9,761 nucleotides of DNA, from IMG/VR virus record IMGVR_UViG_2698536369_000012, positions 1-9,761 of that record; one strand, written 5' to 3'. Under the pieces are notes generated by a model. It worked only from the letters and a program-made list of their open reading frames with translations. It made no database searches and was not told where the DNA came from. Every line of letters begins with the position of its first letter. Position 1 is the first letter of the stretch. A program made the position numbers and the translations under genes. The DNA is from a virus (Duplodnaviria > Heunggongvirae > Uroviricota > Caudoviricetes). Positions 1 to 9,494 of this stretch are shown here, in pieces.

Positions 1-134
1 GCAATGGCCAGCTCTTCGTCACGCATGTTCTGCATGATGATGCGACGGCGGCGGTAAGCCGGGTCCGCCAGATTCTGCGGATCTTCATCCGGCAGGCGAC
101 GCAGGGTCATCTGCGGATTCACTTCATGCTTCGG
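1..134 (-). pseudogene. 3' internal fragment of a lambda-type major capsid protein E gene; runs off the left edge, 5' side cut by an in-frame TAG at 135-137
   Basis: Minus-strand translation of 1-134 gives PKHEVNPQMTLRRLPDEDPQNLADPAYRRRRIIMQNMRDEELAIA, which I recognise as an internal segment of phage lambda gpE. The next upstream codon (plus 135-137) is a stop, and sequence beyond it is AT-rich and unrelated. Confidence 0.7.
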
Positions 135-213
135 CTACATGAGTCAAATATGAAAGGATGTGAATGAATTTACTTGATAAAACATCATCAAATCGACATT
201 ATTCCTCCTTAAT

Positions 214-237
214 GCAATACAGCGTGCAATACAGCGT
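214..237. repeat. Perfect tandem direct repeat GCAATACAGCGT x2 upstream of the nuclease-domain gene
   Basis: Read directly: gcaatacagcgt at 214-225 and again at 226-237. Confidence 0.6.
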
Positions 238-240
238 GAA

Positions 241-283
241 GTGACATAAATCTGTTCATAGATTCAAGGTGTATAAATATTTA
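241..283 (+). promoter_or_regulatory. Putative sigma70-type promoter region for the 318-1190 gene
   Basis: AT-rich stretch with GTGACA (241-246) and TATAAAT (272-278) about 40 nt upstream of the start; exact -35/-10 spacing is not canonical, so this is tentative. Confidence 0.25.
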
Positions 284-317
284 ACCGTTACTCTGATGAT
301 TGGAACGAGGCTGCACA

Positions 318-1190
318 ATGACTAAAAACACTGGCAGAGATTATGAGGAATTTGTTGGGGCGATTCATCAAAGCTTGATACAAGCTGAGAAAATTTCTCA
401 CTTGAAAAACATCACCGTTGAAGTAAACAAAAAAATCGTAGATAAAAACGGCATAACTAGGCAATTCGATGTGTATTGGGAATTTAACTTAGGAGGTTAT
501 GAATATAAGACCGTAATCGAATGCAAAGACTACGCTTCAAGTGTAAGCATCGAGAAAATTGACGCATTCATCGGAAAAACAGCAGATATTCCCGGCCTAA
601 GACTAATTTATGCAACCAAAACAGGGTATCAAAGTGGGGCTCAAAAAAAAGCCGAACAATATAAAATTGACCTTCTAATAGTTCGTGAAGCTGATAACGA
701 AGACTGGCGCGCGCCAGATGGAACACCACTTATCAAAACTATTCAATTGAATATCGTCGCGATAACTCCCCCCAGAATAACTGCATTCTCACCAATGATA
801 GATGCAAGCTGGCTTGAGTCGCAAAAAAATTTAAACATAGATGATTTAAATTCAAGGTTCAGTCGACTACTTAACAACCAAATATTCATCGTTGATAATA
901 CTACCCACGACAAGTATTCTCTCTGCGACTTAGAAAACTCCTTATCCGCGAGAGTACCTAACATCCAATATGGTGCAGGTACTTACAAAGAAGAGCTAAC
1001 CGACGCTTATTTAGAGTTAGAAAATGGTGATTTAAGATTAAAGCTGAGAGGTTACTCACTTAATTACACATATAACAAACCGGCAGAGACAATTTCTACA
1101 ATTGACTATTCAAAAGAGTTATTGGGAATTGTTCAAAACTATACCTCTGGCGCTAAGAAAATGGTTTTCAAAGACGGAATTATAAAGTAA
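318..1190 (+). CDS. Mrr-like PD-(D/E)xK restriction-endonuclease-domain protein with an uncharacterised C-terminal domain (~290 aa); candidate defence or restriction gene
   Basis: ORF track 300-1190. The first ATG is at 318 with GAGG at 307-310 (7-nt spacing); the track's first codon at 300 is TTG. The N-terminal ~120 aa carry the Mrr catalytic-domain pattern (DYEEFV ... FDVYWEF ... VIECKDY ... GLRLIYATKTGYQSGA ... IDLLIV), i.e. a D...E.K nuclease core. Residues ~125-290 match nothing I recognise. The gene is markedly AT-rich compared with its flanks. Confidence 0.75.
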   Translation: MTKNTGRDYEEFVGAIHQSLIQAEKISHLKNITVEVNKKIVDKNGITRQFDVYWEFNLGGYEYKTVIECKDYASSVSIEKIDAFIGKTADIPGLRLIYATKTGYQSGAQKKAEQYKIDLLIVREADNEDWRAPDGTPLIKTIQLNIVAITPPRITAFSPMIDASWLESQKNLNIDDLNSRFSRLLNNQIFIVDNTTHDKYSLCDLENSLSARVPNIQYGAGTYKEELTDAYLELENGDLRLKLRGYSLNYTYNKPAETISTIDYSKELLGIVQNYTSGAKKMVFKDGIIK

Positions 1191-1247
1191 CAGCATATCA
1201 TTCGAAGTGATTTCCTAATCTAGTGATAAGTCGTTCAATATAAAGAT

Positions 1248-1285
1248 GCGGCCCTTAGCAGGGCCCATTTCACTTTCCTCTCTTC
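1248..1285 (+). terminator. Possible intrinsic terminator downstream of the 318-1190 gene
   Basis: GC stem GGCCC (1250-1254) / GGGCC (1261-1265) with a 6-nt loop, followed by a T-rich tract catttcactttcctctcttc. Confidence 0.35.
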
Positions 1286-1468
1286 GATTAAATCACGAAT
1301 TAAATCACAGCGAACTCAGTTTACAGTCTCAGTATATTTTTTAAACCTATGTTCATTTTCTGCCAATCTGCATTTCATATAATCCGCCCAGCATTTGAAA
1401 AGTGCTTCATCAGTGCCTAGGTAAGCATATAAATATCCCTTAAGAGCTTGGTCAGTAAGCACACTCTC

Positions 1469-1954
1469 CTAATCCCAGTCCACAATGAATTGACGGAAAA
1501 AACCGAATGATTTTGCCGGATCCACATTCCTCCATGTTCCCACCACGATACCAAACACCGGAATCTTAAACGTTACCATTATAGGAAAATCTTCATACCC
1601 AACTTGCTCGATAACTTCTTCTGGTTGTCTTAAACCTGTAGAGATGATACTTCCCTGATAAATTGCTCACCCTCCGGCCAGATGCGCATACCACATTTTG
1701 TCTTCGACATAGATCCACGCAGAAATGATTGCGCCCCCGATACGGCTCTTTCCATAAACTAACAAAACGGGATTCACCTGAGCGGTTGTGTTCGGTACGC
1801 CACAAAACGCATAGGATGCCTTGTAATCCGCATTCTGCTTACTCAATAGCTCACCAGCAGGGCGCATAAGGCTGTTGCGATAGTGCAGAAGTAGGCCACG
1901 ACCATGAAGCGAAGCCAGCGGCGCGTTATTGTCTACTTTAGTGTAGAGCCTGAT
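1469..1954 (-). pseudogene. Decayed gene of unknown family: ~160-codon reading frame with an internal in-frame TGA and no start codon at its 5' end
   Basis: Minus-strand frame translates as IRLYTKVDNNAPLASLHGRGLLLHYRNSLMRPAGELLSKQNADYKASYAFCGVPNTTAQVNPVLLVYGKSRIGGAIISAWIYVEDKMWYAHLAGG, then TGA at plus 1667-1669, then the same frame continues AIYQGSIISTGLRQPEEVIEQVGYEDFPIMVTFKIPVFGIVVGTWRNVDPAKSFGFFRQFIVDWD to a stop at 1469-1471. The track shows only the 66-aa piece (1667-1867). Confidence 0.4.
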
Positions 1955-2015
1955 TCAACGCAGGGGTGAGAGTTTTTTCTGGTGACAGACCGCGACAGAC
2001 GGCAACAAAACCAGA

Positions 2016-2070
2016 GAAAGGAAACGACACTGTCCAAAAAACACGTTTTCAGCATCTGTTGTTTCCTTTC
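2016..2070. repeat. Long inverted repeat: 14-bp arms (one mismatch) around a 27-nt loop, T-rich on both flanks
   Basis: gaaaggaaacgaca (2016-2029) pairs with tgttgtttcctttc (2057-2070); followed by tttttag on plus, and by a T-rich run on the minus-strand side as well. Confidence 0.5.
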
Positions 2071-2235
2071 TTTTTAGTGGGTGTTTCTAATAAAAACATT
2101 AAGTTACGGCGAAGAAGAACGGAAACGCTTTAAACCGGAAAATTTTCATAAATAGCAAAAAACTGCGCGCCTGACGCCCCGTAGTCTGCCGGATTGCCGG
2201 AAAGGACCCGCCAGCCAGAGCGGGCCCTAATTTCA

Positions 2236-2619
2236 TCAACCAATCAGCTTATAGCGACCATCCCGTGCATTGCGGCGTACACGCTCAATCTTGAGGCATA
2301 GCGCCGCATCTGGCTTTTTTGGGACAGGTACGCGGCAATATTCAGAAGCGCGAGGAATATTATTTATCCAGTCGATCACTTCACTTAAATACCAGGCCTT
2401 ACGCCCTTCCGTAACCTGCACACGCTCCGGGAACTCTCCACTAGCCTCAAGGTTTAGCAGTGTACGACGACTCAGGGTTGTAATTTCCATCACCTGATTC
2501 ATATCAACAAGGCGCTCGCTTAAACACATTTTGTCAGCGATAGCTTTTAATTCCTCTACAGCTGGATTCGGGTACATCATTTCGGCAATTGGCTTAAGGT
2601 CATTGTAATCATTCTGCAT
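2236..2619 (-). CDS. AlpA/Xis-type (MerR-like) helix-turn-helix DNA-binding protein, 127 aa, with N- and C-terminal extensions
   Basis: Central segment VMEITTLSRRTLLNLEASGEFPERVQVTEGRKAWYLSEVIDWI fits the AlpA/excisionase pattern (ITxLSRxTL ... G.FP ... W..SEV..WI). Strong RBS AGGGGGA 4 nt before the ATG, 11 nt after the stop of the decoration gene. Confidence 0.7.
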   Translation of the reverse strand: MQNDYNDLKPIAEMMYPNPAVEELKAIADKMCLSERLVDMNQVMEITTLSRRTLLNLEASGEFPERVQVTEGRKAWYLSEVIDWINNIPRASEYCRVPVPKKPDAALCLKIERVRRNARDGRYKLIG

Positions 2620-7519: not shown

Positions 7520-7711
7520 TTAATCCCCCAGCAGCTTACTTTCTTCCTCAATCAAAAAACTAGCGACACTTCCCGAAAGACGCGCCAGTAGGCTCGCCAG
7601 TGCGGATATATCAGCATCTGTAATTTTGTTCGGGTATACCTCAAGAAGGCGGCAAATAATTTCTGTCTGGTGCGCACGTTCAGCGGCTTCGTGTAATGTA
7701 ATTTCCTGCAT
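7520..7711 (-). CDS. Hypothetical small protein (63 aa)
   Basis: ORF track; AGAGGTG RBS; its start overlaps the upstream gene's stop by 1 nt (TAATG). Confidence 0.5.
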   Translation of the reverse strand: MQEITLHEAAERAHQTEIICRLLEVYPNKITDADISALASLLARLSGSVASFLIEEESKLLGD

Positions 7712-7896
7712 TAATGCACCTCTTTTAATTCATACACTGCTGAAATAATGACTTGTGATAAGCCATATTCTGATGATTCGCTTCTCACCGCAGCAATAGC
7801 CGTCTGAACATTAACAGCCTTCACATTCTGAGCGATACCAATTGTGTGGCCTAGTGGGTTAACAGCTCGGGCAAATACACGGAAGGTTTTAAGCAT
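7711..7896 (-). CDS. Hypothetical small protein (61 aa), first gene of the minus-strand operon
   Basis: ORF track; GGGAG RBS 5-6 nt upstream of the ATG at 7894-7896. Confidence 0.5.
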   Translation of the reverse strand: MLKTFRVFARAVNPLGHTIGIAQNVKAVNVQTAIAAVRSESSEYGLSQVIISAVYELKEVH

Positions 7897-8177
7897 GACT
7901 CACTCCCTGGCGGATTTTTGCAGCGAATACAGCAACACAACCGGACGGGCAACGGCTACGCGCTTCGCGTTCCGTCCAGGCGGTTACGTGGATGATTTGA
8001 GATTCTCCGGCACTCAGTGCCAGAAAACGCCACACAAAGGCCGTTTGTGTGTGTACAAGGTGTGGTATATGATTTACAGCAACCATAACGGCTCCTAGTT
8101 TACGTTGTTGGTTAGACGCCCCGTATGTGTTCCCAGCACTGCGGGGCGTTGCTCTTTGTATTTCAACAATCCTTTCG

Positions 8178-8255
8178 GTGTGTTTCATGTTATGAGCGCA
8201 TGAAACACACGTCAAGGCTTTTTGTATTTCTTTTTTTGTGTATACTGAAACACAC
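8178..8255. promoter_or_regulatory. Operator-like site set in the divergent intergenic region: perfect 12-bp inverted repeat plus a third half-site overlapping an extended -10 element
   Basis: gtgtgtttcatg (8178-8189), 9-bp spacer, catgaaacacac (8199-8210); a third gaaacacac copy at 8247-8255. TGTG-TATACT (8237-8246) looks like an extended -10 for the 8277 gene. Confidence 0.5.
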
Positions 8256-8276
8256 CGATGATTAGGAGTTTCAGAA

Positions 8277-8582
8277 ATGGCAACGGCTAACAAAAACGCA
8301 AAATCACAACTGACAACTGTCAGAGTCCCACTAGATGTTATGCAAGGGATGGAATCCGTTAAGCTGGACGGTGAAAGCAATGCCGGATTTATCGTAACCG
8401 CCATGCGCGGAGAAATAGCCCGCCGCCAAGCAGAAGGCAGCGGAGAAAATCCCCTTGTGTCGTCACTGGATGCCCTGGCTAAGGTCGAACAAATCGGCAT
8501 CAAAGCAGCCGAGGAGATCGGGCAACTCGTCACCGTCGCGCGTGAAGAACTCCAGCGACGCAAGGTCAAAGAGCATGAATAG
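8277..8582 (+). CDS. Hypothetical protein (101 aa), possibly a small DNA-binding regulator
   Basis: ORF track; AGGAG RBS 8 nt upstream; sits next to the operator-like repeats. N-terminal LTTVRVPLDVMQGM is reminiscent of a ribbon-helix-helix beta strand, but that is weak. Confidence 0.65.
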   Translation: MATANKNAKSQLTTVRVPLDVMQGMESVKLDGESNAGFIVTAMRGEIARRQAEGSGENPLVSSLDALAKVEQIGIKAAEEIGQLVTVAREELQRRKVKEHE

Positions 8583-8639
8583 CCAATATCAGCGCCATAG
8601 TTTGAGGAACGCAGGCGCATTGCTTTACAGGACAGCACC

Positions 8640-8819
8640 ATGAGCGACACAGAATCAACCAAAACACCATCACCAACTCGTAAGAGACGACGCAAAAATA
8701 TAGCGCATGAACATGAATCAGAAAGATTCGCACCTTGTTCGTTTGCTCTTGAGAAATTCCTTAAAGAGCACAGGAAAAAGCTCTCGTTGCAAACCTTGGA
8801 ACGAACCAAATCTGACTGA
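8640..8819 (+). CDS. Possible small basic protein (59 aa), not in the ORF track
   Basis: My own translation from ATG 8640 to TGA 8817-8819: MSDTESTKTPSPTRKRRRKNIAHEHESERFAPCSFALEKFLKEHRKKLSLQTLERTKSD. AGGA lies 7 nt upstream, and a terminator follows. Confidence 0.35.
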   Translation: MSDTESTKTPSPTRKRRRKNIAHEHESERFAPCSFALEKFLKEHRKKLSLQTLERTKSD

Positions 8820-8885
8820 TCACATTGCCCACCAGCCGCAAATGTGGCATTGTTGGTGATGCTTTTGTTTTCCCTTGTTCCCACT

Positions 8886-8916
8886 GGCGACCCTTTTGCG
8901 GTCGCCTTTGTTTTGT
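8886..8916 (+). terminator. Rho-independent terminator between convergent genes
   Basis: ggcgacc (8886-8892) / ggtcgcc (8900-8906), a perfect 7-bp stem with 7-nt loop, followed by tttgttttgt. Confidence 0.6.
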
Positions 8917-9494
8917 CACTGAATGCGGTTACCAAAGTAAAACTCAGGCTGATATTCACGTATCAGCGTTTTTTCTTCTTCCTCCAGCTCACGCTTTTTG
9001 CGCTTACATGCCTGTAGCTCCCTCCCCTTCTCGCTGGCACTTATTTGATATTGCTCTTTACGGCGGGAAAAATCCTGTAATGCACCCCACGGGATACCAT
9101 AAGTCCCCGTTTTTCTGATACCTGGTATCACATTTCTGAATACCCAGTTACTGAAACGATGAGCAAATGTGCCAGGCGTCGTTGCTTTGCGGCTGCGGGC
9201 TATTAGTTTGTAGAAACCTGACTCAGAGATAATTCTCATATTCTGATTTCCTCCTGGGGTGTAAGTTAAATTTACTCCCTTTTCATCATCATCAAGCATC
9301 TGCAACGCCGTACGCGAATTGGTTAGTTCCAGCGCAGCACAAACATCTTTTGCAACAAACCACGGATCGCCGTTCAGATACACCACACGAACGTTCACAC
9401 TATCAAAGCGCAGAACGACGAGATCACGAATATCGCAGAATTTTTTCACTGGACGAGCGTACCCCTTGCCCGTCACGGCAATATTTTTATTCAT
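8916..9494 (-). CDS. Bro-N domain protein (phage antirepressor-like), 192 aa
   Basis: N-terminal ~100 aa (RFDSVNVRVVYLNGDPWFVAKDVCAALELTNSRTALQMLDDDEKG ... ISESGFYKLIARSRKATTPGTFAHRFSNWV) fit the Bro-N / antirepressor N-terminal domain pattern. C-terminal region is charged and coiled-coil-like. Confidence 0.8.
   Translation of the reverse strand: MNKNIAVTGKGYARPVKKFCDIRDLVVLRFDSVNVRVVYLNGDPWFVAKDVCAALELTNSRTALQMLDDDEKGVNLTYTPGGNQNMRIISESGFYKLIARSRKATTPGTFAHRFSNWVFRNVIPGIRKTGTYGIPWGALQDFSRRKEQYQISASEKGRELQACKRKKRELEEEEKTLIREYQPEFYFGNRIQ

Follow-up and report, generated by a model that had tools for sequence, protein, structure and literature searches.

A probable lambda-type cos site between the AlpA-like gene and the cargo of a helper-embedded PICI

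What is the function of the non-coding stretch that separates the AlpA-like gene from the cargo of this phage-borne element? The window, the whole stretch of DNA analysed here, comprises 9,761 nucleotides of a Caudoviricetes record (IMGVR_UViG_2698536369_000012), and the stretch in question lies at positions 2000-2235. The original prediction, made from the letters alone, offered a bidirectional terminator, a small RNA, or a recombination or packaging site as possible roles. The structural elements on which it was based are present. A repeat finder recovered the inverted repeat, with arms of 15 nt (2015-2029 and 2057-2071) that are 93% complementary and have 27 nt between them. T-tracts flank it: UUUUUA follows the hairpin on the plus strand, and there is a U-rich stretch on the minus strand. 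The gacagac direct repeat occurs as GACAGACCGC at 1984-1993 and GACAGACGGC at 1994-2003, and folding of the minus strand gives two GC hairpins, one with a 10-bp stem (2203-2228) and one with a 4-bp CCGG stem (2189-2200). The region was also rightly called non-coding, as the three small overlapping ORFs that touch it (1933-2055, 1966-2133 and 2099-2239) have no PHROG matches and were rejected as genes. Among the proposed roles, the packaging site fits. Judged from its sequence, window 2004-2211 on the minus strand is very probably the cos site of a phage-inducible chromosomal island (PICI) embedded in a helper, an HE-PICI of the 11capE type, residing in a lambdoid prophage.

Among the products encoded in the window are head proteins like lambda E and D, a 127-aa AlpA-like protein, an SSB, a D5-type primase, a DUF4222 protein and a Bro-N protein. 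In complete E. coli genomes, near-identical copies split the major capsid gene of a lambda-like prophage and run in the direction of its late genes. The C-terminal part of the surrounding prophage's lambda E-like capsid gene makes up window 1-134, with the attachment junction at ~134-155. The other part of the capsid gene lies beyond the integrase in the near-identical copies, and the integrase falls just outside the window in relatives. The element is thus an 11capE-type HE-PICI, lodged in gene E. The satellite unit measures ~11 kb and is mosaic, in that SCU-316 holds a near-identical late half while the early region is different.

The AlpA-like gene next to the region (2236-2619, minus strand; PHROG 2790, E = 1e-49) is the second of its kind in the satellite. 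It always ends 55 nt before cosN and is distinct from the alpA beside the integrase (33-36% identity). We considered its product as an analogue of Rpp or TerS, and this is unsupported: the only PDB relative is the AlpA-family regulator 8c3t. Between Bro-N and the small early genes lies an ORF of 356 aa (7889-8959, minus strand) with no Pfam or PADLOC match.

The identity of the region emerged from a sensitive BLAST search of its minus strand against 50,697 phage records. Matches were found in 102 records, and the best are all to lambdoid coliphages and cover window 2005-2211 ungapped. Identity reaches 88.9% with phage YDC107_1 and 85.4% with lambda and DE3, so that the alignments to lambda and other lambdoid phages span 206-207 nt without gaps at 85-89% identity. 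The matched phage segments are the intergenic region upstream of nu1. In YDC107_1 the segment lies upstream of Nu1, and in DE3 it holds an annotated 'cos site' directly upstream of nu1 and A. With lambda numbering, in which bp n corresponds to window 2180-n, all lambda subsites are in register in alignments with lambda, with the prophage housing a near-identical element and with sister elements. The homology to lambda ends at bp ~176 (window ~2004), 15 bp short of the lambda nu1 start. The window holds neither terS nor terL, so the site lacks the adjoining nu1-A of lambda, as expected for a satellite copy. The sequence identity, the register and orientation of the subsites and their conservation in relatives are observed directly; we infer TerS binding, the cleavage positions and packaging from lambda biology. 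A complete lambda-type cos (cosQ-cosN-cosB, 2004-2211, minus strand), recognized by its ungapped alignment with lambdoid phage cos, accounts for the region fully.

The packaging-termination signal cosQ, GGGTCCT (2203-2209, minus strand), is identical to that of lambda at 7/7 positions and would have the role described for it there (PMC4669245). It stands 23 nt from the predicted top-strand nick, the same distance as in lambda. Alignment to the annotated lambda cohesive end places cosN at 2166-2181 (minus strand), with a predicted 12-nt 5' overhang GGGCGTCAGGCG at 2168-2179. The CG pairs on its two sides (2180-2181 and 2166-2167) are both kept as in lambda. The overhang itself shares 7 of 12 bases with the lambda overhang GGGCGGCGACCT: bp 1-5 are identical, and bp 6, 8, 9, 10 and 12 differ. 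The nicks would fall at the two ends of this overhang.

On the other side of cosN, the interval to R3 (the lambda I2 segment; 2131-2165, minus strand) matches lambda bp 15-49 at 32 of 35 positions. It contains no indel, and the critical spacing between cosN and R3 is therefore kept; this spacing is important in lambda (PMC9026076). R3, the predicted TerS/gpNu1 box nearest cosN (2115-2130, minus strand), agrees with lambda bp 50-65 at 15/16 positions, including all nine of the TerS contact segment (bp 55-63). Between R3 and R2 lies the I1 region, a putative IHF bending site (2072-2114, minus strand) with 36/43 positions as in lambda, whose core block GTAACTTAATGTTTTTATT (2089-2107) is identical to lambda. 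Two IHF-consensus-like matches fall within it (2089-2101 and 2094-2106), in a window where this consensus is no commoner than chance, and I1 is assigned as an IHF site through homology only.

The remaining two boxes form the hairpin. R2 is a predicted TerS box in the opposite orientation (2056-2071, plus strand; 15/16 as in lambda bp 109-124) and makes up the right arm. R1 (2015-2030, minus strand), predicted to be a further TerS box, is identical to lambda bp 151-166 at 16/16 positions and makes up the left arm. The 'loop' is the partly self-complementary R2-R1 spacer (2031-2055, minus strand), with 19/26 positions as in lambda bp 125-150. The box core GTTTCCNTTCTT occurs in three exact copies in the 9.8-kb window, where 0.25 is expected by chance, and all three are in the cos region: 2014-2025 (minus), 2061-2072 (plus) and 2115-2126 (minus). 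Accordingly, the repeat finder reported an additional inverted pair (2061-2075 and 2112-2126) and an additional direct pair (2015-2026 and 2116-2127). Because the arms of the hairpin also pair with or copy this third site, the locus contains three copies of one box and not a simple hairpin. The arms fall short of full complementarity, at 93%, since R2 carries one substitution. R2 and R1 are likewise inverted relative to each other in lambda (PMC9026076). We conclude that the hairpin is best read as the inverted protein-binding boxes R2 and R1, rather than primarily as an RNA structure.

The 10-bp-stem GC hairpin at 2203-2228 (minus strand) is a different matter. It is specific to the satellites, being found in all satellite copies and absent from phage cos regions. 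It comes directly after the AlpA-like gene's stop codon and holds cosQ in its 3' arm; its U tract is only UUU, and its fold is not exceptional (z = -1.3).

Could the R2-R1 dyad act as a bidirectional terminator or insulator between the leftward capsid/AlpA-like operon and the rightward cargo gene, beside or instead of a role in packaging? The genes on its two sides do converge in the window. The hairpin, for which the original prediction had proposed a calculation of the RNA fold energy, comes to -22 to -23 kcal/mol and beats shuffled sequences: z is -4.8 (plus strand) and -2.6 (minus strand) when it is folded as RNA, and -3.7 and -2.1 when it is folded as DNA. The U-rich sequence that flanks it on both strands would suit a terminator too. 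The dyad furthermore extends past the box cores through the spacer (window 2015-2071), and in diverged cos sites compensatory changes preserve its pairing at 8 of 25 pairs, a number that none of 500 shuffles reaches and that slid controls, at 2-4, fall below; this covariation comes mostly from one divergent lineage (the L013 type). Our literature search found no described role for an extended R2-R1 dyad. The covariation could reflect co-varying paired binding sites, and it does not by itself establish an RNA or cruciform role. Against termination, a consensus scan of 1700-2700 called no terminator. Intrinsic terminators have a short GC stem, a small loop and at least five U, whereas the interior of the dyad is 27 nt and the hairpin at 2203-2228 has just its three. 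The arms are TerS boxes, whose complementarity follows from their inverted arrangement. Lambda, too, has this dyad between cosN and nu1, a position that its Q-modified late transcription must cross. Overall, we regard a terminator at this position as unlikely.

As a cos site, the region would operate in the following way. After induction, the satellite would excise and replicate into concatemers. The gpNu1/TerS of a helper with lambda specificity would bind R3, R2 and R1 while IHF bends the DNA at I1. Thus positioned, gpA/TerL would nick cosN 12 bp apart and leave the 5' cohesive ends GGGCGTCAGGCG. Filling of the prohead would start at the cosB side and proceed toward lower window coordinates, so that the cargo genes would enter first and the capsid, decoration and AlpA-like genes last, and a downstream cosQ-cosN would end packaging. 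This scheme uses the packaging of lambda by TerS, IHF and TerL as its analogy (PMC4669245, PMC9026076). The Nu1 of the SCU-316 helper is 98% identical to lambda Nu1, and residues 1-47, with the DNA-binding helix and wing, are identical. The window copy has no terS or rpp of its own, which argues for mimicry of the helper cosB and against redirection of the terminase. The product could take one of two forms: ~4 units (~44 kb) may fill one lambda-sized head, or the satellite's own E and D homologues may build smaller heads. About four units per lambda-sized head have been described for EcCICFT073 concatemers (PMC6092414).

Such a site is an ordinary feature of a known satellite family, as the literature already describes E. 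coli PICIs with cos sites and reports a cos-like segment for the 11capE family. In 11capE itself, Tommasini, Mageeney and Williams (2023) described a 258-bp sequence, 90% identical to the helper cos, at the usual place of cos in PICIs (PMC10111431). By its published description, Eco567.11capE belongs to the same family as our element, is inserted in gene E, carries its own E homologue and has the cos-like segment at the same place. That report gives one sentence to cos; the anatomy of the subsites, the allele difference and the swapping of modules are absent from it. Lambda cos has the same order, orientation and spacing of subsites over an ungapped ~207 bp, with identical cosQ and CG flanks and R3, R2 and R1 at 15-16/16. 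It differs from the window site at five overhang positions and in the adjoining nu1-A, and the window site follows an AlpA-like gene and belongs to a satellite of 11 kb.

Other satellites use related strategies. EcCICFT073, another E. coli PICI, has at cos1 a cosQ and a cosN that resemble those of lambda, and the terminase of lambda-like helpers packages it (Fillol-Salom 2018 and 2019; Murialdo and Feiss 2022). A phage cosB with R boxes is missing from it, and Rpp, which it encodes itself, re-targets TerS to the island (PMC6739421). The cosB of the window, in contrast, is complete and phage-like, and there is no Rpp-sized or TerS-like gene; this absence is judged from the neighbouring genes, an AlpA-family protein (PDB 8c3t) and the tail-assembly remnant. 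P4 (with a P2-type cos) and SaPIbov5 carry the helper cos so that the helper terminase packages them (PMC6092414). The principle is the same, although the sequences are unrelated and the helpers and cos types differ. The cosN variants of N15, phiD326 and Gifsy-1 concentrate their variation in bp 7-12 and conserve cosQ and the CG flanks (PMC4669245). Compared with these, the satellite allele is also changed at bp 6 and differs from lambda at five positions, rather than two or three.

The cohesive-end allele further distinguishes the satellite from its resident helper. The satellite overhang GGGCGTCAGGCG and the helper overhang GGGCGGCGACCT differ at 5/12 bases in 6/6 capsid-gene-embedded pairs (L001/L005, L007, L008, L076, L077 and L079). 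These are not six independent events, given how closely the satellites are related and that the allele of lambda is the common one. The comparison draws on these pairs, the helper cos of the window's exact source strain lying outside the window. In one of the strains (UID2309220033; L076), the housing prophage has a phage-21-type cosB and the satellite has lambda-type boxes, which the TerS of this prophage would not be expected to recognize. The housing prophage therefore need not be the packaging helper. A few IMG/VR prophages carry the satellite cosN allele, and the phage collection holds no record with this allele and the same flanks (best match 88.7%).

Feiss and co-workers found that lambda terminase tolerates changes at bp 7-12, that a two-base mismatch between ends lowers the yield about fourfold, and that the left half of the overhang is the half under selection (PMC4669245). 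The change at bp 6 of the satellite overhang falls in this left half. With five mismatched bases, cross-annealing of satellite and helper ends should therefore be prevented. The satellite and helper cos have the same orientation on one composite prophage, and if a packaging run began at either of them and finished at its counterpart, the resulting ends would mismatch at 5/12 positions and should cyclize poorly. One might suppose that the satellite deliberately keeps a mismatched overhang while matching the helper cosB, with an allele that may insulate the satellite or interfere with the helper. We find this idea rather doubtful, and selection for the mismatch is speculation on our part.

The site is widespread among relatives. 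An exact scan of IMG/VR for a 19-mer spanning cosN returned 56 contigs, of which ~52 have the satellite order E - D - AlpA-like - cos at fixed spacing. Three others (L019, L053 and L063) carry the same cosN allele followed by nu1 and A, and are thus true prophages. The same 19-mer produced 11 matches among species representatives; every one is in an unrelated GC-rich taxon and lacks cos architecture, and these were set aside as chance. The R-box cores do not vary among 41 unique lambda-type cos sequences, whereas just 4 of 25 columns of the R2-R1 spacer (bp 125-149) are invariant, a pattern that fits protein-binding boxes. The long inverted repeat is conserved through its box cores. The gacagac repeat belongs to junction DNA, is not kept in related elements and looks like chance.

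The relatives also show where the cargo begins. Measured against the window, homology breaks recurrently at ~2139, ~2062, ~2014 and ~2005, and a minority of relatives continue to 1803, to 1749 or through the cargo. The break at ~2139 lies after cosN and leads into a different cosB and an own terS of another type. At ~2062 and ~2014 the cosB is diverged and the R boxes are still present, and the break at ~2005 follows R1 and leads to a nu1-like terS or its remnant. Since the breaks lie inside or directly after cos and variable genes follow, the cargo slot begins right after cosB, and the proposed cargo border is borne out across the 52 related satellites. In the window, unrelated DNA of ~140 bp comes after cosB, then a gpI-like remnant and then an Mrr-like nuclease gene. 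The remnant (1667-1867, minus strand) matches the last 50 residues of PHROG 32, a lambda gpI-like tail assembly protein (E = 6e-13). What had been taken for a decayed cargo gene is hence the remnant of a captured helper late gene.

Sister satellites that share the E-D-AlpA-cosQ-cosN block encode their own terS after cos (L006 13951-14699; L007 11283-12084; L010, L017 and others). These are of two types, one resembling lambda Nu1 (with 70-74% identity to the Nu1 of the helper) and one distant (35-39%) and accompanied by a different cosB. The cos site could possibly be a preferred crossover for the exchange of cosB/terS modules and defence cargo. The overhang mismatch with the helper and the swapping by sister satellites of cosB/terS modules, and then cargo, after cosN appear to be new. 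The mismatch adds a little to the published picture, as do the breakpoints that make cos a mosaic.

A cos site of this kind could also be a relic, captured from the helper along with late genes and now unused, with the satellite moving by other means or not at all. Several observations are compatible with such decay: in the window copy no terS follows cos and a fragment of a decayed tail-assembly gene adjoins it, R2 has its one substitution, the cosN allele is unlike that of the resident helper in all six pairs and one helper has a 21-type cosB. In addition, those who described 11capE were unable to detect any virions of its helper (PMC10111431). An unused site would hardly be preserved in this manner, however. 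All subsites and spacings are intact, the R-box cores stay invariant in the 41 unique sequences while the neighbouring spacers drift, and the block is kept in every one of ~52 satellites though the sequence immediately past it is swapped freely. We consider a relic quite unlikely.

That the region encodes a small regulatory RNA is very unlikely. It is a structured and conserved intergenic region, as such an RNA would require, but the cos subsites fully explain the conservation and the fold of the whole region reaches z-scores of only -1.6 and -2.2. A search of Rfam 15 was negative both for the whole window (gathering score) and for 1850-2350 (E<=1), the scan of 1700-2700 found no promoter-like site and no canonical terminator, and a tRNA/tmRNA scan found none. 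The recombination site, in the form of an integrase attachment site of the element, is least probable of all: the region does contain repeats and lies close to one of the element's ends, but the capsid-gene junction lies at window ~134-155 and not at 2000-2235, and the attachment site of the family is a 10-bp identity block within gene E (PMC10111431).

Elsewhere in the window, the Bro zone contains a GC hairpin (8107-8150, minus strand) formed by ACGCCCCG and CGGGGCGT, which shares the 11-mer TACGGGGCGTC with cosN and has no cosQ nearby. C4/isrK-like RNAs are reported in the Bro zone of some PICIs; this hairpin has no Rfam match (7600-9000, E<=1). We also considered a second cos, as in EcCICFT073, and rejected it: the only other partial cosN match (8107-8125) is an arm of this GC hairpin and lacks cosQ.

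If the region is a cos site, it marks the predicted DNA cut, the direction of packaging and the start of the variable cargo slot. It would be useful for annotating such elements and for predicting, through lambda packaging specificity, the helpers that mobilize them. The slot lies between cos and the attachment site (window 160-1900; L002 7591-8733; L008 10291-12007; L007 10418-11176), and its contents vary by strain. They include an Mrr_cat nuclease-like gene in the window (300-1190), a TIR protein in IAI39, DUF262 with HEPN, DUF2971 and others. PADLOC returned no match for the nuclease of the window (300-1190). The slot beside cos looks like a hotspot for defence genes. Within it, a segment of ~180 bp (window 1571-1752) is inverted in six relatives (L018, L021, L038, L039, L043 and L055), with one breakpoint at ~1750 in the tail-assembly remnant.
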